DNA of 64,000 bases from an uncultured delta proteobacterium (GCA_963789265.1 CAWBKB010000006.1:320001-384000), one strand, 5' to 3'; counted from the first letter of the stretch, positions 5,488-59,704 are shown. Program-made: numbers and translations. The notes: a model not told the origin generated them from the sequence alone.

Positions 5488-7031
5488 TGAGAGTCTCCAC
5501 TATAGCCAGTGAGATCGTGATCAACATCACTGAGCGGGAAACCCGCTTGGCGCTCATTGAAAACGGTCAGGTCGCGGAAATCCATCTGGAGCGCAAAGGC
5601 GAGCGGGGGATTGTCGGGAACATTTACAAAGGGCGTGTGATAAAGGTCCTTCCCGGCATGCAGGCCGCTTTTGTGGACATCGGCTTGCCGCGCGCCGCTT
5701 TCCTCTATGTGGGAGACGTCCATCTCCACATCCAGGACCTTAATTTTATGGTGAACGAAGAAGAGGACGAGGAGTCGGGGGAAGAGGCTGATGCTATCCA
5801 GGAGGGTATTCCCGAGCATCTGCCACCCATTACCCCCATTGAAGACCTCTTGCAAGAGGGAGAGGACATACTTGTCCAGATTTCCAAGGAACCGCTGGGA
5901 AGCAAAGGGGCCCGCATAACATCTCATGTATCCATACCCGGGCGACATCTCGTGTTCATGCCCACAGTGGATCACGTGGGGATCTCGCGAAGGATAGAGG
6001 ACGAGGCTGAACGCCAGAGGCTCAGGGATATCATCGCGCGTATCAAACCCCCTTCCTGCGGAATCATCGTGCGAACCGTCAGCGAGCATGAGAACCTGGA
6101 AAAGTTGGAAGTGGACCTGACCTTCCTTCAAGGAACCTGGCGGCGCATCCTGGAAAAGGAGAAGAAGGTCCCGGCCCCCTCGTTGATATACGAGGATCTT
6201 GACCTCTGCCTGCGGGGAGTGCGTGACCTATTTACGGAAGACGTGTCTCGCCTTGTCGTGGATTCCGAGGAGCACTACCACCGCATCCTCGACTTTATGG
6301 AAACGTTCATGCCCTCGTTGAAGCCATGCGTTGAACTTTACGACGGGGACGAGCCCATTTTTGATTTCTTCGGTATCGAGATGGAGCTCAACAAGGCACT
6401 TGGAAGAAAGGTTTGGCTAAAGTCGGGAGGATATATCAATATTGACTTCACAGAGGCCCTGGTGGCGATTGACGTAAATACAGGCCGCTACGTGGGCAAG
6501 CGAAACCTTCAGGAAACTATACTCAAGACCAACCTTGAAGCTGTCAAAGAGATAGCTTATCAGCTTCGCCTCAGAAACATCGGTGGAATTATCATTGTTG
6601 ATTTTATCGACATGGACAGGTCGGTGGATCGAGAAAAGGTGTCTAATGCTTTGCAGGAGGCATTGAGAAGAGACAAGCAAAAAACCAATATACTGAAAAT
6701 TTCCGAATTGGGCCTTGTCCAGATGACTCGAAAGCGAACACGAGAAAGCCTTACCAGGACCTTATGTGAACCATGCCCCTACTGTGAAGGCAAGGGGTTC
6801 ATCAAATCCCAAACAACTGTGTGCTACGAGATCCTACGTGCTATTTCCAGAGGGATAACAGATGAGTATTCGTCCTGCATCCGTGTCACTGCACATCCGG
6901 AAGTAGTGAAGCTGCTATTTGAGCAGGAAAGCGACCAACTGGAATCGATACAAGGACAGTACAATACGAAGATCCAGCTAAATCCGGATCCCAACCTATA
7001 CCAGGAACAATACGAAATTGTGAACTGCTGA
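5487..7031 (+). CDS. rng: Ribonuclease G (Rne/Rng family)
   Basis: GNIYKGRVIKVLPGMQAAFVDIG, IDVNTG, GGIIIVDFIDM and CPYCEGKG motifs. Confidence 0.92.
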   Translation: MRVSTIASEIVINITERETRLALIENGQVAEIHLERKGERGIVGNIYKGRVIKVLPGMQAAFVDIGLPRAAFLYVGDVHLHIQDLNFMVNEEEDEESGEEADAIQEGIPEHLPPITPIEDLLQEGEDILVQISKEPLGSKGARITSHVSIPGRHLVFMPTVDHVGISRRIEDEAERQRLRDIIARIKPPSCGIIVRTVSEHENLEKLEVDLTFLQGTWRRILEKEKKVPAPSLIYEDLDLCLRGVRDLFTEDVSRLVVDSEEHYHRILDFMETFMPSLKPCVELYDGDEPIFDFFGIEMELNKALGRKVWLKSGGYINIDFTEALVAIDVNTGRYVGKRNLQETILKTNLEAVKEIAYQLRLRNIGGIIIVDFIDMDRSVDREKVSNALQEALRRDKQKTNILKISELGLVQMTRKRTRESLTRTLCEPCPYCEGKGFIKSQTTVCYEILRAISRGITDEYSSCIRVTAHPEVVKLLFEQESDQLESIQGQYNTKIQLNPDPNLYQEQYEIVNC

Positions 7032-7133
7032 TTTATCCCTTCCTGCCTAGCCTCCTGCGATAACATCGCCAAATAACAGACCAGTTTGCCTAACATTCCT
7101 CATCTGAGCGCACGTCCGCATGCGACGGGAAGA

Positions 7134-8294
7134 TCAATGCGCGACACGCGAAAGTTCTAGGCAGCGACCGATAATCATCCGTTGCACTTCTGAAGTTCCT
7201 TCCACGATCTGCAGGATTTTGGCACTCTTGAAATACCTGGACACGGGATATTCCTCCATAAAGCCATAGCCCCCATGGATTTGGAGCGCGTCGCTCGCCA
7301 CCCGTTCAGCCATTTCAGATGCAAACAGCTTTGCCGCTGCAGCTTCAAAAGTGTGATCTCTCCCCATCTCTTTCAACCAGGCAGACTTGAGATACATATT
7401 GCGGGCCAGTTCTATAGCTACCGCCATGTCAGCCAACTTGAACTGAATTGCCTGGAAATCGAAAATCGGCCGTCCGAACTGCATCCGTTGTTTTGCGTAG
7501 AGCAGTGCATTGTCGAGGCATGCCTGGGCAAGGCCCACAGCCATGGCAGCGAGGGAGATTCTTCCAGTTTCGAGTACCGCGAGGTGCTGTGCAAATCCGC
7601 GCTCAGGATCTCCCAACAGGTTATCTGCGGGAATGCGGCAGTCCTCCAAAATGACCTCATGGGTGGCGCAAGCATGCCATGACATCTTTCTATAGCGCTT
7701 GCCCAGCTTGAATCCGGGAGCGTCTTTCGGCACGATAAAGGTGGAAATGATGTTTCCTTTGTCGTTCTTGCCCGTCTTAGCGGCCACGAGGACCACCGAA
7801 GCGTGATCGAGACCTATATTGGTGATGAACTGTTTCGTTCCGTTCAGTATCCATTCGCCATTTGATGGCACAGCCGTAGTTCTGACCGAAGCGGCATCCG
7901 ATCCCACGTCAGGTTCGGTAAGGCCGAAGGCGCCGATTTTTTCTCCACGAGCGATCGGAACGAGCCATTTCTGCTTTTGCGCTTCTGTACCAAACACCAG
8001 GAGTTCCTGACCGACAATACTCATGGTGACGTCCAGCAGCGCACCCAGTGTGATATCGCCTCTGGAGATCTCTTCGATGCAAATGTGAGCACCTACCCAG
8101 TCTCCTCCGCTTCCCCCATACTCTTCCGGAAAGGGTATTCCCATCATGCCCAAATCGGCCATTTGTTGCATGATGTCGTAAGGGTATTCTCCAGTCGCTT
8201 CCATATGCTCGGATCGAGGGGCGATTACTTCCTCTGCAAAGTCCCGCGCCGTATCCCTCATCATTCGCTGCTCGTCCGTAAGATCAAAGTTCAC
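7134..8294 (-). CDS. Acyl-CoA dehydrogenase
   Basis: FGLTEPDVGSDA, NGTKQFITN, ALQIHGGYGF and EGTSEVQR motifs; GTG start at 8294 after GGAG. Confidence 0.95.
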   Translation of the reverse strand: MNFDLTDEQRMMRDTARDFAEEVIAPRSEHMEATGEYPYDIMQQMADLGMMGIPFPEEYGGSGGDWVGAHICIEEISRGDITLGALLDVTMSIVGQELLVFGTEAQKQKWLVPIARGEKIGAFGLTEPDVGSDAASVRTTAVPSNGEWILNGTKQFITNIGLDHASVVLVAAKTGKNDKGNIISTFIVPKDAPGFKLGKRYRKMSWHACATHEVILEDCRIPADNLLGDPERGFAQHLAVLETGRISLAAMAVGLAQACLDNALLYAKQRMQFGRPIFDFQAIQFKLADMAVAIELARNMYLKSAWLKEMGRDHTFEAAAAKLFASEMAERVASDALQIHGGYGFMEEYPVSRYFKSAKILQIVEGTSEVQRMIIGRCLELSRVAH

Positions 8295-8546
8295 ATTTAC
8301 TCCGTCGTAAAACCGGTGACCTGCAAAGCAGAACCGCTCGCGAGGGTATGTTTGGCCTGTAGAGCGGGGATTACCGCGCGGCCTTAGCTCAAGCCACCGA
8401 GGAGAGACCGCCGCTCCCATCCGCAGCTTGCAAGTATCACCAAGAGATGGAACCACCAGATGCCAAAACCTCTTTTGCTACACAATCCGGACCACATCCA
8501 GAGTGGAAGACATCTCATGGCATCGAACCCGAGGTCGCTAAAGGCG

Positions 8547-9386
8547 CTATTTCTTGTCCTCGTACCAGGCCTGGACCTTGGGTAGGTGTTTAGCTGCTAC
8601 TTGTTGGACGTTAGCCAGGGTTTGGTTCACGTAATCTACCTCCTCTTTCGAGAGGGGTTCCCATTTGATATATTCCATGTTGTTCCACCAATCGTCCTTG
8701 GACTTGATGCAAGGTTTGGTGCTGCCGGGAAAGGCTTGCCACATCGTGGGAGAAGTCCTGAGAAGGGAAGCACGCTGCTCTTGCAGCAGGAAATGATCTC
8801 TATTCTGCTTTCGACTGAAGTAGATGAAATCTCCGGGAGGTCCTATGAGGACCGCCACTCTCGCAGTGCAGTCCGGCATAAAACCTACCCCTGCGCATGC
8901 TGCCCCTATAGTCCCCATGGGACGGGCGTCCATCCGGTACTGGTTCGCCGCCGCGCATGCGTAGTCGCAGGCAGCGGCCCAATCCATGAGCTTCCACGCG
9001 CACGATGGACCGCCCCAAAGTAATCCCATGCCTCCATGCTCTTTGGACCACTTGTTAAATTCTGCGCATGAATCGAAACCACAAGCGCCACAATCCCAGC
9101 CCAGCTCCGACCGGTCCATTTTGGCCCCGATGAGGACGCAACCTAGCGGCGAACCATTCTCTCGGAAGTGCTTCATGGTTCGGTGATCGAAAGCCATGAC
9201 CGGTGATATGGGGGCTAAGGCCCCGGCAAACTCGATAATAGGATCCTGATCCTCATCAGTCAGGATTTCTACCTTGATCTCCAATGTTCCGGTCAACTGC
9301 GGTGCTCTGTAAGCCGCTGCGGCTGCGAGCCTGGTCACTTCCGACACTGCTTCTCGGGCTGCCACCTTACCGTCTATTCTAGCCAT
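8547..9386 (-). CDS. DUF2148 ferredoxin-domain protein (paralog B)
   Basis: AAAYRAPQLTG, CGACGFDSCAEF...GPSC and DARPMGTIG motifs. Confidence 0.75.
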   Translation of the reverse strand: MARIDGKVAAREAVSEVTRLAAAAAYRAPQLTGTLEIKVEILTDEDQDPIIEFAGALAPISPVMAFDHRTMKHFRENGSPLGCVLIGAKMDRSELGWDCGACGFDSCAEFNKWSKEHGGMGLLWGGPSCAWKLMDWAAACDYACAAANQYRMDARPMGTIGAACAGVGFMPDCTARVAVLIGPPGDFIYFSRKQNRDHFLLQEQRASLLRTSPTMWQAFPGSTKPCIKSKDDWWNNMEYIKWEPLSKEEVDYVNQTLANVQQVAAKHLPKVQAWYEDKK

Positions 9387-10173
9387 CGAGATCCTCCTGT
9401 TTCTTCGGGGTTTGAATGCGATAGTCGAAGTTGATCCCTGACGCGGTTTGGCGATTACAAACGAAGTTTTTCCTCGTATTGTCGATCATTTTCTCCATGT
9501 TGATGAGGTGGTAATCAACGTTCACGTCCTGGTACGGGCTCTTGGAGAGAGTCGCCATCGGAAGTCCCACTATAATGGCCGAATCCGAACAGTAACCCAG
9601 CTTCTGTCCCGCCAGTCCCACGCTCATGAACGGTCTGGCATCAACGAGCAGTGTCTGGGCCATCCATATCGCTGATGCCCACGCGTAGCCCAGATCATCG
9701 ACCCGCGCGCCGCATAGCGGCCCCTTTATCGGAGTGGAGCTCCTCTTGTCCGTAATGTCGACCAGGCCTTCTTTTGACTCCCTTCGCGTGTAGAGGAATG
9801 AGCATCCCGCCGGACCGCCGCACAAACCGCAGTTAGCATCGAGAGGCGTCTCGTGTGCACGATAGTTCCCAAGAAACAGAATGACGTCCGACTCCCTCAC
9901 CATGACTGCTTCGTTGAGAAATCGCCTTTTCCACCGGTCGTTGGTGTGCGCCAACTCTTCCATTTTTCTTGCGACCTTTTCCAACTCCTCTTGCCCGTAA
10001 ACGACATGGGCCTGCACCTGCGGAACACCACCAGCCACCGGAGCAGTCAATGCTGCGTTCATGCATAATCGTGCGGCTATGATTGTTGCTTCTCTCCGTC
10101 TAAGGTCCTGCGGAGAATAGCGCGGCCAATCACCCACATGCTCCTCGCCTCTTAATTGGTCAAATCGCTCCAT
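9379..10173 (-). CDS. DUF2148 ferredoxin-domain protein (paralog A)
   Basis: AALTAPVAGG, NCGLCGGPAGC...GPLC, DLGYA, VDARPFMSVG and SKSPY motifs; AGGAGG RBS before ATG 10173. Confidence 0.75.
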   Translation of the reverse strand: MERFDQLRGEEHVGDWPRYSPQDLRRREATIIAARLCMNAALTAPVAGGVPQVQAHVVYGQEELEKVARKMEELAHTNDRWKRRFLNEAVMVRESDVILFLGNYRAHETPLDANCGLCGGPAGCSFLYTRRESKEGLVDITDKRSSTPIKGPLCGARVDDLGYAWASAIWMAQTLLVDARPFMSVGLAGQKLGYCSDSAIIVGLPMATLSKSPYQDVNVDYHLINMEKMIDNTRKNFVCNRQTASGINFDYRIQTPKKQEDLDG

Positions 10174-10229
10174 AAAAGACCTCCTGAGTTGGGCTGTTAT
10201 AGTGCCGTTAACACTTGTGCGGTCGCCTT

Positions 10230-11411
10230 TCACCTGGTTAGAATGTGGACGCACATTGCCGCGACGTCACCTCCGATTAGGCCGCCGCCGTTGTGTACCA
10301 AACCGACCCGTGCGCCTTCAACCTGGCGCTTACCGGCTCGTCCTCGCAACTGCGTCACGATTTCGTAAACCATCGCCAACCCTGTGGCTCCAACCGGGTG
10401 CCCCTTCGATTCAAGCCCTCCACTTGGGTTTATTGGAATGCTTCCTCCTATTTCGGTCCGTCCTTGATCTATGAATCTCCAAGCTTCGCCCTTCCGGCAG
10501 AAGCCGATTTCTTCGAAATAGAGCAATTCCGCTGGCGAGAATGCGCTGTGAATTTCTGCGAGGTCCACATCTTCCGGGCCGATGCCCGCGAGTTCAAAGG
10601 CTTGTCGAGCTGCCATTTGGGTTGCGCTCGGCTTCTCAACGTCGATGCGCATGTCCTGATAGCCTCCCGAAGCCATGCCTATTGCGGCTATCCGGACCGG
10701 GTCTGAACGATACCTTTTCGCAATCTCTTCAGCGCACAGGATTGCGGCGGCGGCTCCGTCACCGATAGGGGAACACATATACAGGGTAATGGGATCGGCT
10801 ATCATCTTCGAGTTCAGCACATCCTCTACGGTCAACATGTGCTGAATCTGGGCATGGGGATTGAGGCAGCCGTTCTTATGATTCTTGACCGAAACCTTTG
10901 CGAAGTGTTCTCTCGTGCAGCCTGTTTCATACATGTATCTCTTGGCGTCCATGGCGTACAGACCGGGAAAGAACACCCCCATGTTACCCTCGATTTCCAC
11001 GTCGGTGCATGTTGCGAGCGCGCGAGTGGTTTTGGCGGTGTCTCCGACGTAAAGTTTCTCGAAGCCGACGGCCAGTGCCACGTCGCAAAAGCCCGAAGCT
11101 ATCGCCAGCCACGCTTCCCTCAACGCTGTTGAGGCCGAAGCGCAAGCATTGGGAGTATTGATGATGGCTTTGCCGGCGAGCCCCGCTTCCCGCATCACTA
11201 CCTGGCCTCGTACGTCTTCCTGACCTGAGAGGAGGCCATCTACAGCATTGCCGCAGTAGATGGCCTCAATGTCTTCGGGCCGTACGCCCGCGTCCTTGAT
11301 GGCTCCCCAGGTTGCCTCACAGGCAAGATCCTTAGTCTTCCTGCCTGCATGCTTCCCAAATTTGGTCATACTGACGCCGACAATTGAAACCTGCCTGGCC
11401 AATGCACCCAT
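10230..11411 (-). CDS. Thiolase family protein (SCP-x/BbsB-like)
   Basis: NACASAS, CSPIGDGAAA, EIHSAF, SKGHPVGATG and HNGGG motifs. Confidence 0.92.
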   Translation of the reverse strand: MGALARQVSIVGVSMTKFGKHAGRKTKDLACEATWGAIKDAGVRPEDIEAIYCGNAVDGLLSGQEDVRGQVVMREAGLAGKAIINTPNACASASTALREAWLAIASGFCDVALAVGFEKLYVGDTAKTTRALATCTDVEIEGNMGVFFPGLYAMDAKRYMYETGCTREHFAKVSVKNHKNGCLNPHAQIQHMLTVEDVLNSKMIADPITLYMCSPIGDGAAAAILCAEEIAKRYRSDPVRIAAIGMASGGYQDMRIDVEKPSATQMAARQAFELAGIGPEDVDLAEIHSAFSPAELLYFEEIGFCRKGEAWRFIDQGRTEIGGSIPINPSGGLESKGHPVGATGLAMVYEIVTQLRGRAGKRQVEGARVGLVHNGGGLIGGDVAAMCVHILTR

Positions 11412-11421
11412 CTAAAACCTC

Positions 11422-11859
11422 TCAGTGTGGCTCTCCGTCTTCTCTTCGGGGCCTGAAAGCATACCCTATCAGTTCGCTCCCATCTTCCGCCCTATGGAGA
11501 GCTTGGAAGACGATTTCCATTTCCATGCCGATGTGGAGAGATTCCTCGCGCGGCTCGCATCCTGTGATTACCGAAAAGATTCTCACCTTTTCCGGTAAAT
11601 CGATCTTGCCCGTCACATAAGGTGCCTCAAATCCCGTCGGAGCCACCTGGTTGACGGAGTACGCATAGAGGGTGCCTCTCTTGCTCAAAGCGATTTCTCT
11701 TGCCGAGTCCTGCGCCAAGCAGTGGGGGCACACCAGCCGTTTGGGAAACACTATCGCATGACATTCGGAGCATTTCCCGCCTAGCAAGAATCCGCGCTCC
11801 AAGGAATCGTCCGGTAAAGCAAAGAGCCCGTCGGCAACTTTCTTGAATGTGTGAGTCAT
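11422..11859 (-). CDS. DUF35 Zn-ribbon/OB-fold acyl-CoA-binding protein
   Basis: CSEC...FPKRLVCPHC, GTLYAYS and LHIGMEMEIVF; lies immediately upstream of the thiolase. Confidence 0.9.
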   Translation of the reverse strand: MTHTFKKVADGLFALPDDSLERGFLLGGKCSECHAIVFPKRLVCPHCLAQDSAREIALSKRGTLYAYSVNQVAPTGFEAPYVTGKIDLPEKVRIFSVITGCEPREESLHIGMEMEIVFQALHRAEDGSELIGYAFRPRREDGEPH

Positions 11860-11961
11860 CTCGACCACCTTTGAGTCCTGGCTGCAAAGGATTAATTCAC
11901 CTTGTGGCATTCATGACGGAGCTGGACCGGAAGTGAATCCTGCAGGCTCAGGCCGTCTCCC

Positions 11962-13329
11962 TCAGAGTTTGTACAGTTCCTCTATGAATTTTGTCTTCTT
12001 ACTCGACCGCTCAAGGGTGTTTGGCGCCACCCAGGTAATTGCGGGCTGGATCTTCAGATACAGATGCATGTCCTCGAGGATTTCTACTTCGAGCCTAGCA
12101 AGATCTTCGCGGGCAGTGCCCTCACCATATTCCACCTTTAGCTTTAAGGGCGGAACCACCCGCGGGGGCGGCTCCTCAAGAAGGATCTTGAAGGCTCCTG
12201 TAACGCGTGGGACGAACGACTGAATGACCCCCTGAATGCCCGCGGGATAGACGGGCACACCCTTTACTTTGAGCATGTCGTCTGCACGGCCGACGACCTT
12301 GTACCGTAATCCGCTGAGGCCGCAAGGACACGGCTCGGTGAAGACCTGGTGAATATCGTTCAGAGTATAGCGGAGACTCCAGAAGAAGTGGCCGTGTTGG
12401 GGCTCAAGCGGGGTGAAGACCGCCAATCCTGTAGCCCCGTTCTCCAGAGGGATCGGTTGCTTCGTTTCGGGGTCTATTAGTTCATAGTAGCAGTAGTCAT
12501 CGGCCACCCAGTGCATGCCCTGGTACACGGGATGGTCGCACGATATTCCGTACCCGGCCCCTATATCGACCGCTTTGGCCCCGTACTCCGTCTCCAGTCG
12601 TTGTCTTACCTCGGGTATTCCAGCGCCCGGTTCGGCGCCGCATATGAGAACGCGGAATCCAAGGGAGCTGATTGGTTCTCTGAGGACCTCCTGGCTTCGT
12701 TCGATGAGGTGGAGAGCAAGCGAGGGGGTCCCGGTAAATATGGTAGGTTTGAACGCTTTGAAAAGGTGCAGCAGCCGCTCCGTTCCCGCCTCCGCGCCCA
12801 TGGGGATGATTTTTAGTCCGGGAATGCCGCGATACCAGAACATCTGGGGTGTGCCGGCCGCATGCATACTGAGCCCAAAGCAAATTGCCAGCCTGTCTCC
12901 CGGGCGAATACCCGCTCTCCAACCCATACGGCCAAAGATGTCCGCAACTCGGTCAAGGCCGCTCTTGAAAAGGGGATAAGGCGTCGGAATGCCCGTCGTT
13001 CCGGAGGTGGACGTCAGAAGGAAAAGATCGTTCCATCGCTCCGGGCCGAACAGGTCTTCATAAACCTTAGGTAAATCAAGGCCGCCTTCATCCATTGCTT
13101 CGCGGTAATCGGTTTGGCTGATGGGCGGGATAGCCCGTGCAAAATCTTCAAATGAGCGTATGTCTTCAGGTCGAACGCCGGCCCGCGCCATGCGCCTCCT
13201 TTCGAAAGGGACCTTGTCGTAGAAGAAACTGATCGCCTGAGTGAGGCTCTTCCACTGCATTTCACGCATCTGGGGAGTGTTCAGCAACAGTTCCATTTCT
13301 GGATTGAAATATGCTGAGCCTTTTTCCAT
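11962..13329 (-). CDS. Phenylacetate-CoA ligase (PaaK)-like acyl-CoA ligase
   Basis: STSGTTG, GAEPG, LRYTLND, EPCPCG and GRADDMLKVKGV motifs; ATG 13329 has a GGAGG RBS. Confidence 0.88.
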   Translation of the reverse strand: MEKGSAYFNPEMELLLNTPQMREMQWKSLTQAISFFYDKVPFERRRMARAGVRPEDIRSFEDFARAIPPISQTDYREAMDEGGLDLPKVYEDLFGPERWNDLFLLTSTSGTTGIPTPYPLFKSGLDRVADIFGRMGWRAGIRPGDRLAICFGLSMHAAGTPQMFWYRGIPGLKIIPMGAEAGTERLLHLFKAFKPTIFTGTPSLALHLIERSQEVLREPISSLGFRVLICGAEPGAGIPEVRQRLETEYGAKAVDIGAGYGISCDHPVYQGMHWVADDYCYYELIDPETKQPIPLENGATGLAVFTPLEPQHGHFFWSLRYTLNDIHQVFTEPCPCGLSGLRYKVVGRADDMLKVKGVPVYPAGIQGVIQSFVPRVTGAFKILLEEPPPRVVPPLKLKVEYGEGTAREDLARLEVEILEDMHLYLKIQPAITWVAPNTLERSSKKTKFIEELYKL

Positions 13330-13402
13330 GCTTTCCTCCAGGAGCCCTAGAACCCTGCCGTCAATACCAGAAGGGAATGTTCGGTCGACTCCACGCTGGA
13401 AA

Positions 13403-13418
13403 TGCAATGCGTGTGCCA
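13403..13418 (-). promoter_or_regulatory. Sigma54 (-24/-12) promoter for the ligase operon
   Basis: The minus strand reads TGGCACACGCATTGCA (GG-N10-GC, near consensus), 74 nt before the ligase ATG and next to a bEBP gene. Confidence 0.85.
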
Positions 13419-13890
13419 TAGACGTACCGGTCATGTCATAAAGCGTAGTCCGGGCTACAACGTGCCTTCATAGAATTGACCAATCAGGCCACCATTGCCG
13501 ATTTTATGTCGATCAAGTAAATTGGCGGTGACCGCCGGTAAGGTCACGGTTTACCCCGGCCGAGAGCTTAGTCGCAATTTGAAGGGGGATGGATTTGAGT
13601 TCCAGACAGATGGTTAAATGCAGGTGCTCGATCAGGCCGGCATGGCCTTCTCCCTCTTCCGGACCTCCTCGCGAGCGGAGGCCGACGATGGAGGGCAAGG
13701 CCAGGTAGGTAAAGTGGTCGGATGGGCGCTCATCGGAAAGTGAGGACTAGTGGGAACTAATCTGTATTTCGTGTTCCAACATCAAATGCTGTTTCTTGGA
13801 GCGCCCGATTCGTGGATCGAAGGGATGGTCAATTTGCAAGATTGCGAGAGGTTTTGCAGAGTTGCGAAATTCCTGGAATGTCAATGCTTT

Positions 13891-15282
13891 TCATCCTTTG
13901 AAAGATATTCCCAAGGCATTGAGTTTCCTATAGATCGTTGACACATGAACGCCGCTCCGTTCCGCGGCCTGAGACAAGTCTCCACTGGTTTCCTCCAGCA
14001 ATCTGGAAAAATACCGCTCCTCGAAAAGCTTCTTGGCAAGTTCGTAGGTCGTATGAAAGAGATCTTCCTCTTTGCTCTCCCCCTTGTCCTGGGTATACTT
14101 CGATAGATCGCGTGCAGTGACTACGTCTTCAGCATGCAGAGCCACAATCCTTTCGACGAGATTCTTAAGTTCGCGGACATTGCCCGGCCAGCTCCGTCTG
14201 AGAAGACAAGACTCGGCTTCATCAGTGAGCACTTTCTTGTCCACCCCCATTCTCTTGCAAGTTTTGTCAAAGAAATGCCTTGCGAGAATGGGAATATCTT
14301 CCTTTCTTTCCCTGAGAGGAGGGAGAGTGACTTTTATAACGTTGATTCTATAATAAAGGTCTCTTCTGAATCGTCCCTCAAGGACTTCTTGTCCCAGATC
14401 CTTGTTCGTGGCGAAGATTAGCCGCACGTCGGTGGCGATTCGTTTCGTGCTGCCCACCCGGTATATTTCCCCGTCCTCCACTGCCCTTAGGATCTTAGTT
14501 TGAACACTCATAGGGGCGTCACCGATTTCGTCAAGAAACAGCGTGCCTCCTTGGGCTTCCTCGAAAAAGCCGCGGGTTACTCGCGAAGCCCCTGTGAATG
14601 CTCCCTTCTCGTAGCCAAACAACGCGCTTTCCAGGAGCGACTCAGGCAGAGCAGCACAGTTGATGGGAATGAACGCTTTTGCACTCCTGTCGCTCAGCGC
14701 ATGAGTGGCCTCGGCAACCAGCTCCTTACCCGTTCCGCTTTCACCTTCTATGAGGATATGACTGCCCACGACGGCGACTTTCCTGATTATCTCGAGCACG
14801 TGCTGCATGGCCGTGGAAGTGCCTATAATATTTTGGACGACCCTGCGGGAGTGGAGCTGTGTCTTGAGCAACCGGTTTTCGTCGACTAGACGACGGTGTT
14901 CCAGGGCATTCTTGATAGAGATTTTGATCTTGTGAACGTCGTCAAACGGTTTTGTAAAGAAATCAAAGGCTCCCGTTTTCATAGCGCTTACAGCATCGTC
15001 AATTGATCCGTAAGCCGTGATCATGATGACCGGTGTGAGATAATTTTGGGACCGGATAATTTTCAGCAATTCAAGTCCGTTTCCGTCAGGAAGGCGGACA
15101 TCCAGGATGATCAGGTCAGGCGGTCCTTCCGAGTTCAGGTAGTCTGTGAAGGCTCGCGAGGTGTCAACCGAGACGTAGCCGTACCCTTCGCCTTGGAGGA
15201 CTGTCTCAAAATAACGCCTCGTAAAAGGCTCGTCGTCTACAACAAGCACTCTAGGAGAAGGTGCCTGGTCAACAGTGCTCAT
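13891..15282 (-). CDS. Sigma54-dependent response regulator (NtrC/AtoC family)
   Basis: REC domain, [29 protein letters not shown] and a C-terminal Fis-type HTH. Confidence 0.95.
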
Positions 15283-16761
15283 TTGTCTTGCCTCTCATGC
15301 CAGCTTGGCAAGGTGATGAGAAAGGTGGTGCCGGCACTTTCCGACGAAACGACAGAGATCTCTCCTGAATGGCTCTTAATAACCCGGTAAGCGAAGCTGA
15401 GCCCTAAGCCCGCCCCCGAGCCTTTTTTGGTCGAGAAGAAGGGGTCAAAAATCCTTTCCCGGTTCTCACTTGGAATACCGATACCCGTGTCAGACACAGA
15501 AATCCTGATTTTTTGTCGGATTGTGTCGACACCAGCCTCGACAGTCAAGGTCCCACCTTCGGGCATTGCCTGCACAGCGTTGACAAGTACGTTTCTGAAG
15601 GCTTCCCGGAGTTGCAGAGAGTCCCCTCTAAGTGCGGGAAGAGAGTCATCCAATGCTTTGATTAATCTCACCCGGCTGAACCGGTCTCTCTGCTCATTGA
15701 GAGCAACTTCCAGCGCGCTTTCGAGGATCTCGCGCAGGTCTACTGTGTGAAACGTGCTTCTCGGTTCCCGCAGGCTCTTAATCATGGTCGCAAGCATCGT
15801 ATGGCACTTGCGGGCAGCCTCGTGGATCGTGTCCACAAGAGCTCTGTTTGGATCCTGTGGATTCATCCTTTCCAACAGGAGATAAGAGAAGTTAGCCACG
15901 CCTACCAGCGGGTTGTTCAACTGGTGTGCTATTCCGGCCATCAGCTCGGAGTAGATAGCGAGCTTCTCAGACAAGGCGAGTTTTTCTTCCATGGCCCTTT
16001 CCCACGTCATGTCAGTCAAAAGGAACAATTTCGCCTGCACCTGGTCGTTTTTTCCCAGGATGTCTCTCACGTACATCCGCGCGGGGAAAGGCTCACCGTT
16101 TTCGCGTTCGCAAGTCACTTCTACCGGTTCTCCACTGAGAGCGATGGATAACCACAGGTCCAGTTTCGGAGGCTCTTTGAGGGTAAACGACACATGTCGG
16201 CCCACAAAATACTCCCGACCATATAGAAATGCCTCCTCGGCGGTCTTGTTAGCCGATTGTATGATGCCACTCTGGTCGGTGGTGATGACGACATTGGGCG
16301 AGGAATCAATCAAATTTGTCAGAAAGTTGTTGGACTCGGCCAATTGGCGGGAGAGTTCCTGGATGTCTCTCTTGTCTTGCTGCATTTCGCTGGAGACGTC
16401 GTGCATGAGCACGAAACCAGCTTTCCCGGAGAGTGCTGCACCCCGAGAAAGTGCTGATACCTTCTCGTCATAGTACCTGAGGATACACTTCATGTACGGT
16501 CGATTGAAACGGTTTCTCGTTTTGTAGCAGTTGCCAATAGTCACCCATGATGCCCTGCTCGAAAAGCCTGTCCCACTTCTCGTGGAAATAGCTTCCAAGG
16601 ACCATTTCCCGCCTGATTCTGGAAATTTCCTCTTGCCACCGATTCATCATGAGGATTCTTCCCTCTGAGTCAGTAACTATGATACCCGTTGGGATGTTTT
16701 CGATAATGTTTTCGAGGAAAGCGATCCGTGCTCGAAGATCGTCTATAGTTCTCTTGCTCAT
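15279..16761 (-). CDS. Cytoplasmic PAS-PAS sensor histidine kinase; frameshift at ~16476
   Basis: PAS ORF 16468..16761 joins the 15279.. frame on removing one base (YPQ/YYDEK). H-box GIAHQLNNPL, NAVQAM, DTGIGI and FFSTK...GLGL; no transmembrane segment seen. Confidence 0.88.
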
Positions 16762-18394: not shown

Positions 18395-19513
18395 TTAGTA
18401 CTTGAACTGAGTCGACTGCCGCCACGTGGTATAAGCGAATCTGTAGTCGTCGATCAGGTGATGGGTGAAGGGTATATTGGTCTTCCCGAAAAATCTCTCC
18501 CAGCCAATCCGTTCCGCCCAATCTCCCAGACGCTCATACTTGCGCGCATCCTTGGCGTACACGTCGACTATGTTCTTTACCGCTTGAACCGTAGTCGGCC
18601 AACGAGGGGGCTCGTTGGGGATGAATGGAATGACGACCTTGGAGAACTTCGGTTTGCTTTTCCTGTTGGAGAGCTTGCCACCGACAAGAATTGCTATTCC
18701 ACTTCCAAGCTCGTCTGCAAGGGGCATTGCCGCGCACATGGTATAGCAGTTTCCACAGAACATGCAACGGTCCGCATTGACTTCAAGGGACTTGAGGCCG
18801 GTTTCGGTCTTTGCGGGCTTGATGGCCGCAGTGGGACAGGCGGCTATTGCAAGCGGAAGCTCGCACAGTTTATCGATCCACTGATGGTCTACCATAGGGG
18901 GCTTGCGGTGAATTCCCAGGATGGCTATGTCCGAGCAATGGACCGCTCCACACATGTTCAAGCAGCACGCCAACGAAACCCTGACAGGGGCAGGAAGTCG
19001 CATCTGGCCGAACTCGTCATAGAGGCCATCCATGACTGCTTTGACCACGCCGGAAGCATCAATCGCGGGCGTGTGGCAGTGAGCCCATCCCTGAGTATGA
19101 ACGATGTTGGTAATACCCGCGCCGGTTCCGCCAATCGGGAACTTGTTTGAACCCGCGGCGAATTTCCTGCTCTTGAGGTCATCCAAAAGGGGCTTGACCT
19201 TGCTTTTGTTGTCCACCATGAACTCGATGTTATTCCTGGTAGTGAACCTCAGATAGCCGTCGCAGTGTTTGTCTGCGATTTCGCAGATCTCACGGAGATG
19301 CTCGATGCTCATGAGTCGGCACCCGCCCACGCGAACGGTATAGACTTCATCGCCACTCTCGGCCACGTGAACGAGCACGCCTGGCTCCAGGATTTCATGG
19401 TAGAGCCACTTGCCGAAATTTTTCTTGATTACGGGCGACAGGAAGTCCCTGAAATATCTCGGTCCTATATCAGTAATTCTATCCTTTTGCGGATCTGCAG
19501 GATCGTAAGGCAT
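18395..19513 (-). CDS. dsrB: Dissimilatory sulfite reductase beta subunit
   Basis: [44 protein letters not shown] and NEPPRWP motifs. Confidence 0.98.
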
Positions 19514-19528
19514 ATTTTCAACCTCCTG

Positions 19529-20819
19529 TTATCTCTGGTGTTTCTTGCGGTAGTCTTCGATGTCACGCGTCCAGCCGCCTTCAACCTCTTCTTCTTTCCA
19601 GAAGATGTACGGGTTGGATCTCGGCTCGTCGACCATTCTCGGGTCAGGGTCGAGCTCTACTACGCGCAAGAACTCTTGCATACTCTTACGCTGGATAAGC
19701 TCACCGAGCCGTTCGCGGTTCTTACCTTCTTCCATCCACCAGTCCCACACCTTTTCGATTAGATCTTTGAGCTCACTGAAGGGAGGTTCCATCTTCATGA
19801 ATGGGACGGTCAAAGTGGACATCTGAGCGCCTTCCAAAATCGGGGCTTTGGCGCCAAAGAGGATTGACGCACCAGTGTCCTGCCCGATTCTCAGGGCTCG
19901 CGGCATAGTGTTCAGGCAGTGCATGCAGCGAGTGCACTCTTTGTTATTGATTTCGAGCTTGCTGCCATCCCAGCTCATGCAGTCGGTTCGGGCAAAGATC
20001 GATCACTTCTTTCTGAATGTCAAACTTGCCCCAGTCTCGTCCTGAGTGGGCACCGGCGTTGGGTTTGAGCTCCCCGCCAACGTAAGCTTTAGCGGCCGCC
20101 TGGTCAATACGGATGTCATCCCGCCAGGTTCCGATGACTGACATGTCAGACCGAGCTATCGATGCCACGCATCCATTGGGGCAACCATCAAACTTGAACT
20201 TGAACTTGTAAGGGAATGCGGGGCGGTGCAGTTCGTCCTGGTACTCGTTGGTCATCGTGTGACAGCATTCCTGAGTGTCGAAGCAGGCGAACTGGCACCT
20301 GGACATTCCCAGGCAGCATTCAGGAGTTCTCAGGTTCGATCCTGAACCACCAAGGTCCTGATTCAAATCGTGAGTTAGATCGTAGAAGAGAGGTTCAAGA
20401 TTATCCGTCTTGGTCCCCAGGAAGACGATGTCTCCAGTGGAGCCGTGCATGTTGGTTAGGCCGCTGCCGTGTCGTTCCCAGAGATCGCACAGCCCGCGCA
20501 GAAATTCTGTGGTGTAATACTTACTCGACGGCTGGTTTACACGAACTGTGTGAAAATGGGCGACACCGGGGAAATTTTGAGGCTGGTCGCAGTATCTGCC
20601 GATAATACCTCCGCCGTACCCGAACACGCCGACTATTCCACCATGCTTCCAGTGGGTAACTTTGTCCTCGTACGAAAGTTCCATGACACCAAGGAGGTCA
20701 TCCGGCGCCTCCTTCAACGCATGTTTGCCTTTCTCCACCTGCTGCTTGATGTCCGAGACGAAACTTGGCCATGGGCCCTTTTCCAGTTCATCAAGCATGG
20801 GGGTGTTGTGTTTTCCCAT
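19529..20819 (-). CDS. dsrA: Dissimilatory sulfite reductase alpha subunit; one extra base at ~19987
   Basis: [31 protein letters not shown] and FDGCPNGC; continues as [10 protein letters not shown]...CTRCMHC...PRSNPYIFW in ORF 19529..19978. Confidence 0.97.
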
Positions 20820-21112: not shown

Positions 21113-22789
21113 GAAACTGTCTCAAAAGTCGATTTTGGGCTCGCGATTCTCAACCGATTCTACTAATGAGATGTGAAAAGAGAATCGGAGAGGGAAAGGA
21201 TTATGCCGCAAATCAGAGCCGACTACAAGCAGGTGTTTCTGCTTCCGCCCGCTATAGATGACTGGATAGGGCCTGATCATCCAGCGCGCTTCATAGGAGA
21301 CTTTGTGGATTCCTTGGATTTGGAGGTGCTGGGTTTTCGAGTTCCGAATGGCGAAACGGGCCGTCCTCCCTATAGTACCGATCTTTTGTTGAAGGCATGG
21401 CTCTACGGCTATTTCAGCAGAATCAGGTCATCGCGGCAAGCTTGAGAAGGCATGCATGGAGAACATGGGATTGATTTGGCTGACGGGTATGAATGCAGCG
21501 GATCATAATACCCTGTGGCGATTCTGGAGGGACAACAAGAAGGTTTTCAAGGGAATATTCAAACAATCGGTTCAAGTGGCAGTCAAAGCCGAGTTGATAG
21601 GTATGGCGGTTCATGCATTGGATGGAACCAAGATCCCTGTCGGATCATCTCGGGAGAAGTTCAAGAACCAAGATCAGTTGGAGCGGATGCTTGAGAATTT
21701 GGACAAGTGCGTTGCCGACGTCATGACGGAGACAGAGAGGTGCGAGCAAGAGGAGGGTGGCGAATGGCGTCTTCCCGAAGCCCTGCAGGACGAGTTGAAA
21801 CGCAAGGAGCGGATACAGAAGGCCTTGCAGGAATTGGATAAGACTGACAAGAAGGTCGTCCATCCCTGCGAGCCGGATGCCCGGTACATGAAGAACCGGC
21901 GGTCTACTGAGCCCTCTTACAATGCTCAAGCGGTGGCAGACCAACAAAGCGGCATGATTGTGGCTGAGGAAGTGGTCGACGAAGGCAATGACAATGGGCA
22001 GCTTGTTCCCATGCTGGATCGAGTTCAGGAAAATTTGGGCGCAACCGCAGAGGAAACCGTGGCGGACGCAGGATACTTCGCATCGGCTCAAATCGCGTTG
22101 GCCGAAGAGAAGGAGTACGAGGTCTTGGTCGCCAAGTCGTCGGGAGAGTCCGCTGCGGAAAAAGGCGCTCAATGGGACCCTTATCACGCTTCCCAGTTCG
22201 TCTACGACCAAGAGCGAGACGTCTGTATTTGTCCGCAAGGCGCATCGCTGAACTTTCTTCAGAAGAAAGTCACAGGAAAAAACGGAAACGAGATCCGGCG
22301 GTATCGATGCCGGGACTACTTGACGTGTCCTGAACGGTGGAAGTGCAGCAAGAGCAAGAATGGCCGTCTCATAGACATTAACATCTATCGTGACGCAGTT
22401 GAGCGCCACCGCAAGAAACGGGAGGTCCCGGAAAGCAAGACGCTACTCCGAGCCCGCAAGGTGATCATTGAGCCGGTCTTTGCATGGATAAAGAGCCACT
22501 TGGACTTTAGACGGTGGACCGTGTCCGGATTATCCAATGCGAGGGCTCAATGGTCTTTGATGTGCGCCACCTTGAATCTCAAGAAGCTCTACAGCCATTG
22601 GCTGACGGGGCGTCTGGTGCTAACCGCGGCCTAAGACATCAGGACGGAGAGTGACTCATGGCTGCCTGAGGCATACTCATAGCCGGCCCCGGCTCGTCGG
22701 AGACAAGGGAGGCCAAGGTGCGAGATTAACCGCACCCTACCACCCCGAGAGTCGTCATCGTGCCACTACAACCGTTTTGAGACACTCTC
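21113..22789 (+). mobile_element. IS1182-family insertion sequence (1677 bp) with a TTTC target-site duplication
   Basis: IRL gaaactgtctcaaaa (21113-21127) and IRR ttttgagacactctc (22775-22789) match at 13 of 15 positions; TTTC lies at 21109-21112 and 22790-22793. Confidence 0.9.
21203..22634 (+). CDS. IS1182-family DDE transposase; frameshift at ~21437
   Basis: FLLPP...GRPPY...LYGY...SSR/KLE, DGTK, YNAQ, ADAGY, CPQG, R...IEPVFAWIK and NLKK motifs. Confidence 0.9.
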
Positions 22790-58372: not shown

Positions 58373-58573
58373 ATGGAATTCTTTCTCTGCGTGATCGGAA
58401 TGGTGTTAGTAGTCGAGGGTATGCCGTATTTTGCGTTCCCGGAAAAGATGAAGGAATTCATGGAAACAATTCACGGGCAAGAGGATGCTACTCTGCGGAT
58501 TATCGGAGGTACCCTTATCATACTAGGACTGCTGATTTTGTTGGTTGCGCGAAAGGGCCTCGGCTCTGCATGA
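58373..58573 (+). CDS. DUF2065 (YjeT-like) small membrane protein
   Basis: GMVLVVEGMPYFAFP...LRIIG. Confidence 0.85.
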   Translation: MEFFLCVIGMVLVVEGMPYFAFPEKMKEFMETIHGQEDATLRIIGGTLIILGLLILLVARKGLGSA

Positions 58574-59704
58574 AACTGGACGAACCGAAGACCAAAGGTC
58601 CGTTTCCCGAGCAATCTAACGCAAACACTCCTCACAGCTTCCGCCTCCATACCTATACTTATGGATTGCCCCCGGAACTGATCGCCCAAGAACCTGCACC
58701 GGTCAGGGACGAGTCCCGATTATTGGCGCTTCACCGATACACAGGGGAAATTCTACACCACAAATTCAGAGACCTGCCTTCTTTGCTGCATCCCTCAGAT
58801 CTGCTTGTAATAAACGAAACCAAGGTGACGCCAGCTTCTTTAGTCGCTCGCAAGGCAAGCGGCGGCCGCGTGGACCTCCTCGTTCTGGATCCCGCGAGGG
58901 CGGGAGCGACAAGGAGTCCGGACAGCCTTGCAGTACGCACTTGCCTGGTTCGGTCAAGCAAAAGGCTTAGACAGGGGGATGCGATCCAAATTGAGACCGG
59001 GCCGGAAATAACGGTGGAAGAAATCATTGCGCCCGGTCGAGTTCGGGTACGCTTCCCGGTGCCGGAGGATGGCTTCTTGAGCCTGCTTGAACTCTACGGC
59101 CGGCCGCCGCTCCCTCCGTACATTAAGGCCGAGCCCGGGCGCGAAAGGAGTGATCGAGAGCGTTACCAGAACCGTTTACGCTAAAGTTCCCGGATCGGTG
59201 GCCGCTCCCACTGCCGGACTTCACTTCACTGAAAGACTTCTCGAAGAACTTCAAGAAAGAGGCGTAAGCATAGTCAGGATACGCCTTCAGGTGGGGCCGG
59301 GGACGTTCACCCCCGTTCGAGTAGAAGACATTCGGCTCCATCGCATGGAATCGGAATCTTACGAGATCTCCGAATTCGCGGCCTGCTCCATTGCGAAAGC
59401 TTACAAGGCTGGGCGCCGCATAATTGCCGTGGGAACTACCACCGTCAGGGCTCTGGAATCCGCAACAATCGAGGAGGGTCTTGTAAGGGCGGGTAAAGGT
59501 GAAACAGACCTTTTCATACTGCCGGGACACTCGTTCAAAGTGGTTCGGGGTATGGTCACCAATTTCCACCTCCCGGGATCCACTTTGCTGATGCTGGCAT
59601 GTGCGCTGGGGGGAATCGATCTGGTGATGAACGCGTATCGCGAGGCAGTCACGGAAAGGTATCGCTTTTTCAGTTACGGAGACGCGTGCTTAATAGTTGA
59701 TTAA
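58570..59704 (+). CDS. queA: S-adenosylmethionine:tRNA ribosyltransferase-isomerase; one extra base at ~59170
   Basis: LPPELIAQEP, PLPPYI, RYQ/TVYA, SVAAPTAGLHF, VGTTTVRALE, TNFHLP and RFFSYGDA motifs. Confidence 0.95.

Follow-up and report, generated by a model that had tools for sequence, protein, structure and literature searches.

The locus considered here raises the question of what two divergent proteins of the DUF2148 family may do in an operon that otherwise encodes enzymes acting on thioesters of coenzyme A (CoA). It is found in an uncultured delta proteobacterium (GCA_963789265.1 CAWBKB010000006.1:320001-384000), in a stretch of 64,000 nucleotides (nt) that was analysed as a whole, and is referred to here as the window. 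Six co-oriented genes on the minus strand, which span positions 13434-7134, encode a PaaK-like CoA ligase, a DUF35 protein, a thiolase, the two DUF2148 proteins (DUF2148-A and DUF2148-B, hereafter A and B), and an acyl-CoA dehydrogenase (ACAD), in this order. A preliminary description of the locus had named these six genes and their domains, and both are confirmed by searches of Pfam and NCBIfam. The answer proposed here is that A and B form a predicted heterodimer on a nitroreductase-like fold, which is inherited together with the genes for the activation and shortening of a carboxylic acid, and would most likely serve as a pathway-specific redox enzyme.

The two DUF2148 proteins

Both proteins exceed the PF09918 gathering score of 25 bits (54.8-55.1 bits for A and 40.1 bits for B), and both carry the Cys-rich, ferredoxin-like motif of DUF2148, which is a putative site of Fe-S binding. 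This motif takes the form of C115-x2-C118-x5-C124, G151-P-L-C154, and D178-A-R-P181 in A, and of C99-x2-C102-x4-C107, G126-P-S-C129, and D153-A-R-P156 in B. Each of the two families has three invariant motif cysteines and one that is conserved to 90% or more, and B also provides a weak match to the FeS family PF04060 (E 0.0034). The likely start of A is the ATG at 10173, which is preceded by AGGAGG and results in a product of 264 amino acids (aa), in agreement with the lengths of the homologues. The stop codon of A (9381-9379) and the start of B (9386) overlap by 8 nt, as the preliminary description had noted, together with the conserved motifs and the divergence of the pair. The identity between A and B is only 25%, over 123 residues, and the comparison of profiles by hhalign recovers their homology across the whole of the cores (98.6%, E 8e-16, 203 columns). 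To judge from these alignments, A and B are ancient paralogues.

A word-indexed search recovered 370 homologues of A at E up to 0.001, and the 120 listed are mostly 259-274 aa long, with identities of 56-91%. The 100 homologues of B are divided into orthologues at 50-98% identity and a sister group of approximately 295 aa at 31-38%. In the source databases, these proteins are named only as "DUF2148 domain-containing" or "uncharacterized ferredoxin-like protein", and the matches in a protein atlas are to other DUF2148 clusters only. When the B profile was run against 1.84 billion representatives at 50% identity, it found 372 at E<=0.001, 141 at 1e-10, and 45 at 1e-30, and the pair-type family is thus real but small.

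Pairing of the A and B genes and predicted heterodimer

The preliminary description had suggested that the two DUF2148 proteins form a heterodimer, which is supported by the model of the complex, with an ipSAE of 0.84 (0.86, 0.84, and 0.84 in the separate runs), where the best of three controls scored 0.00. In the calibration of this score, 116 of 157 solved complexes came up to the mark, as did 2 of 215 mismatched pairs. The runs share at least 94% of their contacts, and the partner has a predicted local distance difference test (pLDDT) value of at least 80. The AlphaFold model of A alone has a pLDDT of 66, with the Cys region disordered, which rises to 80-86 within the complex, and that of B alone has a pLDDT of 87. 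The modelled interface is formed by residues 113-123 and 145-155 of A and by residues 95-103 and 117-131 of B, which include both Cys motifs, as well as by the central helices.

The arrangement of the genes in other genomes agrees with the modelling. A scan of one genome per species recovered 110 relatives of A, the best 80 of which were kept as related loci. In all but two of these 80 loci (78/80), B is predicted to start close to the stop of A, at -20 to +7 nt, the overlap being 1 nt in 29 of them and 8 nt, as in the window, in seven. In the two loci with no adjacent B, the contig ends within A in one, and the other is short, with a partial A. Modelling and comparative genomics thus support the prediction of an obligate heterodimer encoded by translationally coupled genes, in which each subunit would contribute one four-Cys site, probably a [4Fe-4S] cluster, at or near the subunit interface.

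Conservation of the gene module

The preliminary description had made its interpretation depend on the linkage of the DUF2148 pair with thiolase and DUF35 genes in other genomes, and such a linkage is found. It was counted for genes within 7 kb of A/B, using hidden Markov models built from the gene clusters of the loci themselves, and a fully flanked subset was formed by the 42 loci that extend 5 kb or more to either side. A thiolase accompanies the pair in 61 of the 80 loci (36 of the 42 fully flanked loci), an ACAD in 62 (33), a CoA ligase of any kind in 68 (38), and a small protein, either DUF35 or SCP2-like, in 60 (32), while the thiolase, ACAD, and ligase are present together in 48 (29). 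A gene of a sigma-54 activator is found in 46 loci (28), a short-chain dehydrogenase/reductase (SDR) or 3-beta-hydroxysteroid dehydrogenase (3-beta-HSD)-like protein in 28 (17), the alpha subunit of the electron-transfer flavoprotein (ETF) in 12 (7), and an enoyl-CoA hydratase (ECH) in 8 (8).

The identity to A ranges from 52% to 99% across the 80 loci, which belong to the Thermodesulfobacteriota (Desulfomonilaceae, Desulfobacteraceae, Desulfosalsimonadaceae, Desulfarculus, Syntrophaceae, and Desulfobulbia), the Bacillota (Desulfosporosinus, Desulfotruncus, Desulfallas, and Desulfofundulus), the Dehalococcoidia, and the Geothermincolia. One contig, from a metagenome-assembled genome of the Desulfomonilaceae, is 99% identical to the window.

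The order of the genes is variable. In the type found in the window, it is ligase-DUF35-thiolase-A-B-ACAD, in a second type thiolase-ligase-(old yellow enzyme, OYE)-A-B, and in a type of the Desulfotomaculia A-B-thiolase-SCP2-ligase-ACAD. The commonest type consists of a divergent gene of a 926-aa sigma-54 activator, followed by an SCP2-like protein, an AMP-ligase, A, B, an ACAD, and a thiolase, and often continues with SDR, 3-beta-HSD-like, and ETF genes and a CCG Fe-S oxidoreductase. A second A/B locus, of this commonest type, is found in the genome of the window itself (L005, contig C3 893000-912000, at approximately 9170-13871). It repeats the order just given, from the divergent 926-aa activator to the thiolase, with an SCP2-like protein of 131 aa and with A' and B' as the pair, and ends with a protein of 149 aa that belongs to no family. 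The ACAD of this locus is split into overlapping open reading frames (ORFs) at 10852-11877 and 11609-12094, and the ORF of B' extends to 11327, which suggests a frameshift or an error in the assembly. In two loci of the OYE type (L012, 16640-20780, and L017, 12334-16500), A/B is followed by genes of TetR, amidohydrolase_2, and an 800-aa glycyl-radical enzyme similar to pyruvate formate-lyase, and these neighbours may provide a clue to the class of substrate.

The family PF09918 was found in 28 of 121 sampled genomes of the phylum, and its members there are of two kinds. Tandem pairs, which are lower-scoring matches in ORFs of approximately 225-400 aa, are present in 13 of these 28 genomes, and high-scoring single genes of approximately 170-199 aa in 17, with both kinds in two. 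Three of the single genes were inspected, and their contexts are unrelated to the CoA module; the linkage with ligase, ACAD, and thiolase is specific to the DUF2148 pair, and is not found with these singletons. In one further case, seen once (L101, 8290-11829), a single DUF2148 gene adjoins the genes of an HxlR regulator and of a 765-aa protein with GXGXG, Fer4_20, and Pyr_redox_2 domains, so that a DUF2148 protein and a GltD-like module are again found close together.

The pairs also include a shorter subtype, with proteins of 223 and 216 aa, which has a TetR gene ahead of it and AMP-ligase, ACAD, and thiolase genes after it, with an SDR gene beyond the thiolase in the one locus that reaches that far. 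This subtype was annotated in full in two genomes, and in a third locus, where the selection of ORFs obscured the pair, only the TetR, ligase, and thiolase genes were confirmed. Its first protein is A-like (127 against 37 bits) and its second B-like (106 against 16 bits), which indicates that the duplication of A and B is old, and that the order of A followed by B is fixed.

Predicted fold

A structure search for a nitroreductase-like fold had been recommended in the preliminary description, and the models of both proteins match that fold. In the Foldseek search of the PDB, the top matches of A are all nitroreductases (best E 6e-4), and those of B are to the family of flavin mononucleotide (FMN) nitroreductases (best E 1e-2). 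The VIA-align search of the B model covered 48,161 chains, and all 50 of the matches listed belong, by their titles, to the nitroreductase superfamily. The best match is 3e39_B (Z 9.8, with a root-mean-square deviation of 3.0 over 131 aligned residues), and the matches listed include the iodotyrosine deiodinase, BluB, the C-terminal domain of FbiB (4xom), CLA-ER (4qlx), AlbAB (8uc3), and McbC (6gos). The predicted fold of A and B as nitroreductase-like is thus supported by the models of both proteins. An invariant pair of arginines, R25 and R26, ahead of a T-A-P motif is retained in A only, and may be linked to the binding of the FMN phosphate.

Fused relatives and a possible entry of electrons

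Two different fusions connect DUF2148 proteins of this type with an electron-transfer module. In seven protein clusters of 741-759 aa, an A-type domain is followed by Fer4_20 and Pyr_redox_2 domains, which we take to represent a GltD/NfnB-like NAD(P)H-FAD-[4Fe-4S] module. In one 770-aa representative, a B-type protein is interrupted by the same combination of domains directly ahead of its Cys motif, where residues 1-89 correspond to positions 1-91 of the B profile, and residues 557-730 to positions 90-252. These two fusions suggest that the Fe-S sites of A/B are wired to an external reductant, with A/B as the catalytic end.

A metagenome scan with one of the fused proteins (P0222) recovered a single contig of 1.9 kb, which matched the GltD-like part only. 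In a search of 401 genomes of the phylum with the same protein, the GltD-like part was ubiquitous (394/401), and the result is uninformative on A.

Partner enzymes of the module

None of the six proteins of the operon fits a curated equivalog in NCBIfam. The ligase scores approximately 147 bits with the PaaK models, the cut-offs of which are 646-700 (146.9 bits with TIGR02155, for which at least 646 is required), and it is therefore described here as PaaK-like, within the wider family of PaaK and F390 synthetases, rather than as PaaK. The DUF35 protein reaches 80.4 bits with the BbsA model (cut-off 250). The thiolase is just below the cut-off of PRK06064 (417.7 against 420 bits), and is well below that of BbsB (283.5 against 750). 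The ACAD matches its three Pfam domains strongly and reaches no equivalog cut-off, with AcrC as the best match in NCBIfam (412 against 640 bits). Its likely start is the GTG at 8294, which is preceded by GGAG and is separated from the 3' end of B by a spacer of 252 nt.

In the thiolase, Cys90 and His338, which we take to be the catalytic residues by their positions, are retained in 63 of 63 thiolases of the related loci. As the nucleophilic Cys and the catalytic His are both intact, a true thiolysis of 3-oxoacyl-CoA is to be expected. The reading of this protein as a retro-aldolase of the Ltp2 or Sal type was ruled out by the presence of the nucleophilic Cys in all 63 sequences.

Promoter and regulation

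The near-consensus sigma-54 promoter that the preliminary description had placed ahead of the operon proved to be an exact match, with one correction, that is, it is located within the longest ORF of the ligase (13434..11962). The pattern TGGCAC-N5-TTGCW has a single exact match in the window, TGGCACACGCATTGCA at 13403-13418 on the minus strand, where 0.07 would be expected, and 7 of 100 shuffled sequences contained one. When one mismatch was allowed, the matches in the window were not above chance (1 found, 1.69 expected). The predicted promoter reads TGGCAC-N5-TTGCA, with the consensus spacing, and has the gene of an NtrC-type activator directly upstream, which is the arrangement of a sigma-54 operon, and transcription would begin approximately 12 nt downstream of 13403. 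Given the position of the promoter, the start of the ligase is most likely the ATG at 13329, which is preceded by GGAGGA and lies downstream of the promoter, to produce a protein of 455 aa, most homologues being 451-462 aa long. In the related loci, the motif TGGCA[CT]-N5-TTGC[AT] is found on the operon strand in 32 of 80, with approximately 0.3 expected in all of the loci together (for one strand and a uniform base composition), and a sigma-54-like motif is located directly 5' of the first gene of the operon in the loci compared (e.g., L011, L028, L041, L044, L055, and L076).

From this arrangement, the whole region is predicted to form one sigma-54-dependent operon under the control of a two-component system with a PAS kinase and an NtrC-type activator. 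Two direct repeats located just 3' of the activator gene, approximately 430 nt upstream of the sigma-54 promoter, may represent the enhancer site to which the activator binds. No sigma-70-like promoter and no convincing terminator were found around the ends of the operon, and Rfam provided zero matches across 6900-14000 at E up to 1. The spacer between B and the ACAD (8295-8546) is unusually long for an otherwise tightly packed operon, and has no Rfam match or any folding better than that of shuffled sequences (z 0.44). The remaining genes of the window are housekeeping genes, and the operon therefore stands alone.

Proposed role and alternatives

The module would provide for the self-contained activation and shortening of a carboxylic acid, in which the PaaK-family ligase would form the CoA thioester, the ACAD would desaturate it, and the thiolase, with its DUF35 partner, would cleave the 3-oxoacyl-CoA. 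Hydration and the oxidation of the 3-hydroxyacyl-CoA would be the work of enzymes encoded elsewhere in the genome. The most likely role of A/B is that of a flavin/Fe-S ene-reductase specific to this pathway, which would act on the CoA-bound substrate by the reduction of a C=C bond or of some other unsaturated group, or possibly in the reverse direction. The electrons would reach it through its Fe-S clusters from a low-potential donor, which in the rare fused relatives would be the built-in GltD-like NAD(P)H/FAD/Fe-S module. The predicted nitroreductase fold, several members of which form or reduce C=C bonds, the location of the putative Fe-S sites at the interface, and the fusions with NAD(P)H modules all fit such an enzyme. 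The SCP2-like, SDR, 3-beta-HSD-like, OYE, MMPL, and methylmalonyl-epimerase-like genes of the related loci suggest that the substrate is a bulky hydrophobic acid, either branched, alicyclic, or aryl-alkanoic. The gene content, the promoter motif, and the conservation of the pair and the module are established from the sequences, the fold and the heterodimer have the support of models, and the remainder is conjectural. The whole of this layered interpretation, from the operon module through the heterodimer to the ene-reductase, may be given an even chance of being correct, with the doubt falling mostly on the type of reaction.

A number of observations weigh against it. The nitroreductase family PF00881 is not reached by A (17.1 bits, E 0.0068, with a cut-off of 23.5) and is not matched by B, the hhalign comparison with four nitroreductases of the same genome returned probabilities of 0.9% and 0.5%, which are not significant, and in the PDB, A has no sequence relative and B only six unrelated matches (best E 0.038). 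As this evidence from the sequences is weak, A and B are classified as nitroreductase-like in fold, and not as demonstrated members of the family, and a flavin in A/B is something we infer from the fold alone. The solved nitroreductases are homodimers, and the score of the A/B model, for which the pairs modelled were A/B and three controls, may partly mirror that likeness. The 80 loci are kin that were chosen by their similarity to A, rather than independent samples, and their counts therefore reflect a conserved trait of the family and not independent events. Six of the 42 fully flanked loci have no thiolase nearby, nine have no ACAD, and a GltD-like gene was found in 0 of the 80 related loci. 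Both the substrate and the direction in which the reaction would run are purely conjectural.

In the preliminary description, the absence of a hydratase and a hydroxyacyl-CoA dehydrogenase from the cluster had been taken to mean that the DUF2148 pair may supply the missing redox or hydration step. In its full form, A/B would replace the ECH and/or the 3-hydroxyacyl-CoA dehydrogenase (HAD), to produce the 3-oxoacyl-CoA that a true thiolase needs. The six-gene core does indeed have no ECH, MaoC, or HAD gene that could be recognized by Pfam, A/B remains associated with ACAD, thiolase, and ligase in a number of different gene orders, and dehydratases with Fe-S and flavin do exist, such as the 4-hydroxybutyryl-CoA dehydratase. 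The same genome, however, has 26 matches to ECH_1 and 13 to 3HCDH_N elsewhere, and SDR or 3-beta-HSD-like genes (17/42) and ECH genes (8/42) stand alongside A/B in the fully flanked loci, so that the argument of a missing step is weak. No hydratase or alcohol dehydrogenase is known to have the nitroreductase fold, and the fusion with an NAD(P)H module is better suited to a reductase. The replacement of the hydratase or dehydrogenase is thus quite unlikely; the redox part of the earlier proposal, as a reductase, is favored by the GltD-like fusions, and the hydration and oxidation parts are not.

It is also unlikely that A/B substitutes for ETF as an electron relay, passing electrons from the neighboring ACAD to ferredoxin, the quinone pool, or NAD(P). 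This would account for the lack of an ETF gene in the operon of the window, for the position of the ACAD directly after A-B, both here and in most loci of another type, and for the two putative Fe-S sites at the predicted A/B interface. The genome nevertheless has four ETF-alpha genes, and seven of the 42 fully flanked loci (12/80) have ETF-alpha beside A/B and an ACAD. A/B is kept with no nearby ACAD in nine of the 42, some of which have flavoproteins of the OYE or vanillyl-alcohol oxidase type instead. By the established redox potentials, electrons of the ACAD would have to pass uphill to reach NAD(P) by way of a GltD-like module. Chemistry at a substituent of the substrate (reductive dehalogenation or the reduction of a nitro group or quinone, on the pattern of iodotyrosine deiodinase or the classical nitroreductases), or the use of a cofactor other than flavin, such as cobalamin, is suggested by the presence of the iodotyrosine deiodinase and BluB among the structural matches, and by near-identical contigs that place the host in the Desulfomonilaceae, a family with dehalogenating members. 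The constant partners of A/B are nevertheless chain-shortening enzymes, and the module is widespread in sulfate reducers and Desulfotomaculia that are not known as dehalogenators. No corrinoid protein or reductive dehalogenase is found among the 50 structural matches listed, which is weak evidence, and a role of this kind appears very unlikely overall. That A/B lies beside the CoA genes by chance, or that the two genes are inactive remnants, has only the point in its favor that the search for RNA runs covering the locus listed none, and is scarcely credible, given the adjacency of A and B with coupled starts in 78 of 80 loci, the persistence of the linkage with thiolase, ACAD, and ligase over several gene orders, three subtypes, two types of regulator, and several phyla, and the identity to A (52-99%), with Cys motifs conserved in both families.

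A more far-reaching reading would make A/B the first of a new class of heterodimeric [4Fe-4S] enzymes on the nitroreductase fold, with a reaction unprecedented in beta-oxidation, which is considered improbable here. Such an enzyme might convert an enoyl-CoA, or a blocked (branched or alicyclic) acyl-CoA, directly into the 3-oxo substrate of the thiolase, independently of oxygen, or might perform radical-type chemistry at a position inaccessible to ordinary beta-oxidation. If true, this would represent an undescribed route of anaerobic degradation common to sulfate reducers, Desulfotomaculia, and Dehalococcoidia.

Comparison with known systems

The type of pathway is familiar, and, within the reach of the literature searches, neither the A/B enzyme nor the fixed module of six genes around it has been described. 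No description of the family (DUF2148, PF09918, or IPR019224) was found in the full-text literature, with supplements and subscription journals lying outside the scope of the search. No curated equivalog was matched either, and the view of the preliminary description, in which the cluster is a candidate for an undescribed pathway, is maintained.

In the anaerobic degradation of toluene, BbsAB and BbsG, which act in the benzylsuccinate pathway, likewise bring a DUF35 protein together with a thiolase of the SCP-x-like kind and an ACAD, to act on a CoA ester that is bulky. The proteins of the window score well under the BbsA and BbsB cut-offs, as given above (80 against 250 and 283.5 against 750), and the operon, in contrast with the Bbs system, has no counterpart of the BbsEF CoA-transferase, the BbsH hydratase, or the BbsCD dehydrogenase, with the ligase and A/B instead. 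The closest type of thiolase is that of the archaeal complex of acetoacetyl-CoA thiolase, DUF35 protein, and 3-hydroxy-3-methylglutaryl-CoA (HMG-CoA) synthase, which shares the DUF35 partner, and the Methanothermococcus model provides 383 bits. This score is below the cut-off of 600, however, and the operon lacks an HMG-CoA synthase gene and has a catabolic, sigma-54 context, unlike the archaeal complex.

The peroxisomal SCPx/SCP2 system and the systems of steroid side-chain degradation (Ltp2 with the DUF35 domain of ChsH2, and Sal-Shy) resemble the related loci, in which the thiolase is similarly paired with SCP2-like, SDR, and 3-beta-HSD-like genes, and bulky or branched substrates are therefore implied. 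The thiolases of the A/B loci differ from the steroid aldolases in their retention of the nucleophilic Cys (63/63), and there is no MaoC hydratase partner in the A/B module.

The predicted fold of A and B is like that of the C=C oxidoreductases of the nitroreductase superfamily (4qlx, 4xom, 8uc3, and 6gos), with Z of 7.6-9.8 for many members. In the model of the complex, the predicted A/B dimer is formed through the central helices, and AlbAB is also made up of two different subunits. In contrast with the nitroreductases, both A and B have a four-Cys motif as an insertion, and the dimer predicted is one of diverged paralogues. The fused relatives of A/B follow the same logic as dihydropyrimidine dehydrogenase, FadH, and GltD/GltB, in which electrons pass from NAD(P)H to FAD, to Fe-S, and to the catalytic subunit. 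FadH reduces dienoyl-CoA within beta-oxidation. The catalytic domain of these enzymes is, however, a TIM-barrel or Ntn-type flavoprotein, and not a nitroreductase fold, and the window has no linked GltD-like gene.

The anaerobic breakdown of bulky, branched, and cyclic acids has enzymatic gaps, which involve hydrocarbon-derived acids, isoprenoid and steroid-like lipids, and aromatic side chains. The analysis delimits a module, consisting of ligase, ACAD, A/B, thiolase, and a DUF35 or SCP2-like protein, which has a regulation of its own and is found again in several phyla of anaerobes. It also makes DUF2148 a testable subject, with a predicted obligate heterodimer, a predicted fold, two putative Fe-S sites at the interface, a possible point of electron entry, and cultured carriers, such as Desulfatibacillum alkenivorans DSM 16219, Desulfocicer vacuolatum DSM 3385, and Desulfotruncus arcticus DSM 17038. 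Should A/B prove to be an ene-reductase or an Fe-S flavoenzyme of a new type, a function would be assigned to a few hundred protein clusters named "DUF2148" or "ferredoxin-like", and A/B could serve to mark a catabolic route that has remained hidden in sediments and soils.

Features of the window

The features of the operon and of its regulatory region are listed in Table 1.

Table 1. Predicted genes and regulatory elements of the operon, with positions counted from the first nucleotide of the window.
Feature	Position	Strand	Basis
PaaK-family acyl/aryl-CoA ligase	11962..13329 (longest ORF to 13434)	-	Pfam AMP-binding, AMP-binding_C_2
DUF35 protein, zinc ribbon and OB fold, presumed thiolase partner	11422..11910	-	PF12172, PF01796
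Thiolase, archaeal/SCP-x type, Cys90 and His338	10230..11411	-	Pfam; PRK06064
DUF2148-A, 264 aa, four conserved Cys, predicted nitroreductase-like fold	9379..10173 (ORF from 10254)	-	PF09918
DUF2148-B, 279 aa, four conserved Cys, predicted nitroreductase-like fold	8547..9386	-	PF09918
Acyl-CoA dehydrogenase	7134..8294 (ORF from 8456)	-	PF02771, PF02770, PF00441, all strong
Predicted sigma-54 (-24/-12) promoter, TGGCACACGCATTGCA	13403..13418	-	Exact consensus match; downstream of sigma-54 activator gene
NtrC-type sigma-54 activator	13891..15282	-	Pfam receiver, AAA+, Fis-type helix-turn-helix
PAS sensor histidine kinase	15279..16598	-	Pfam; 4-nt overlap with the activator gene
Pair of direct repeats 20 nt apart (operon strand, TCGCAA-N3-TGCAAA)	13833..13867		Candidate activator site

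Elsewhere in the window, genes similar to those of sulfite or nitrite reductases (NIR_SIR) are located at 18395-20819 on the minus strand, and the upstream one lies in overlapping ORFs (19529-19978 and 19944-20819), which possibly reflects a frameshift. A DDE transposase of an insertion sequence (21456-22634, plus strand) is located between the sulfite-reductase-like genes and genes similar to those of cobyrinic acid amidases. A queuosine gene (Queuosine_synth, queA-like) at 58570-59704 on the plus strand is split into two overlapping ORFs, which is likely to be the result of a frameshift or a sequencing error in the assembly. A second ACAD is found at the edge of the window (62947-63999, minus strand), with ETF-alpha directly beyond it (C6:384266-384499), and the two form an ordinary ACAD/ETF pair, approximately 50 kb from the operon.

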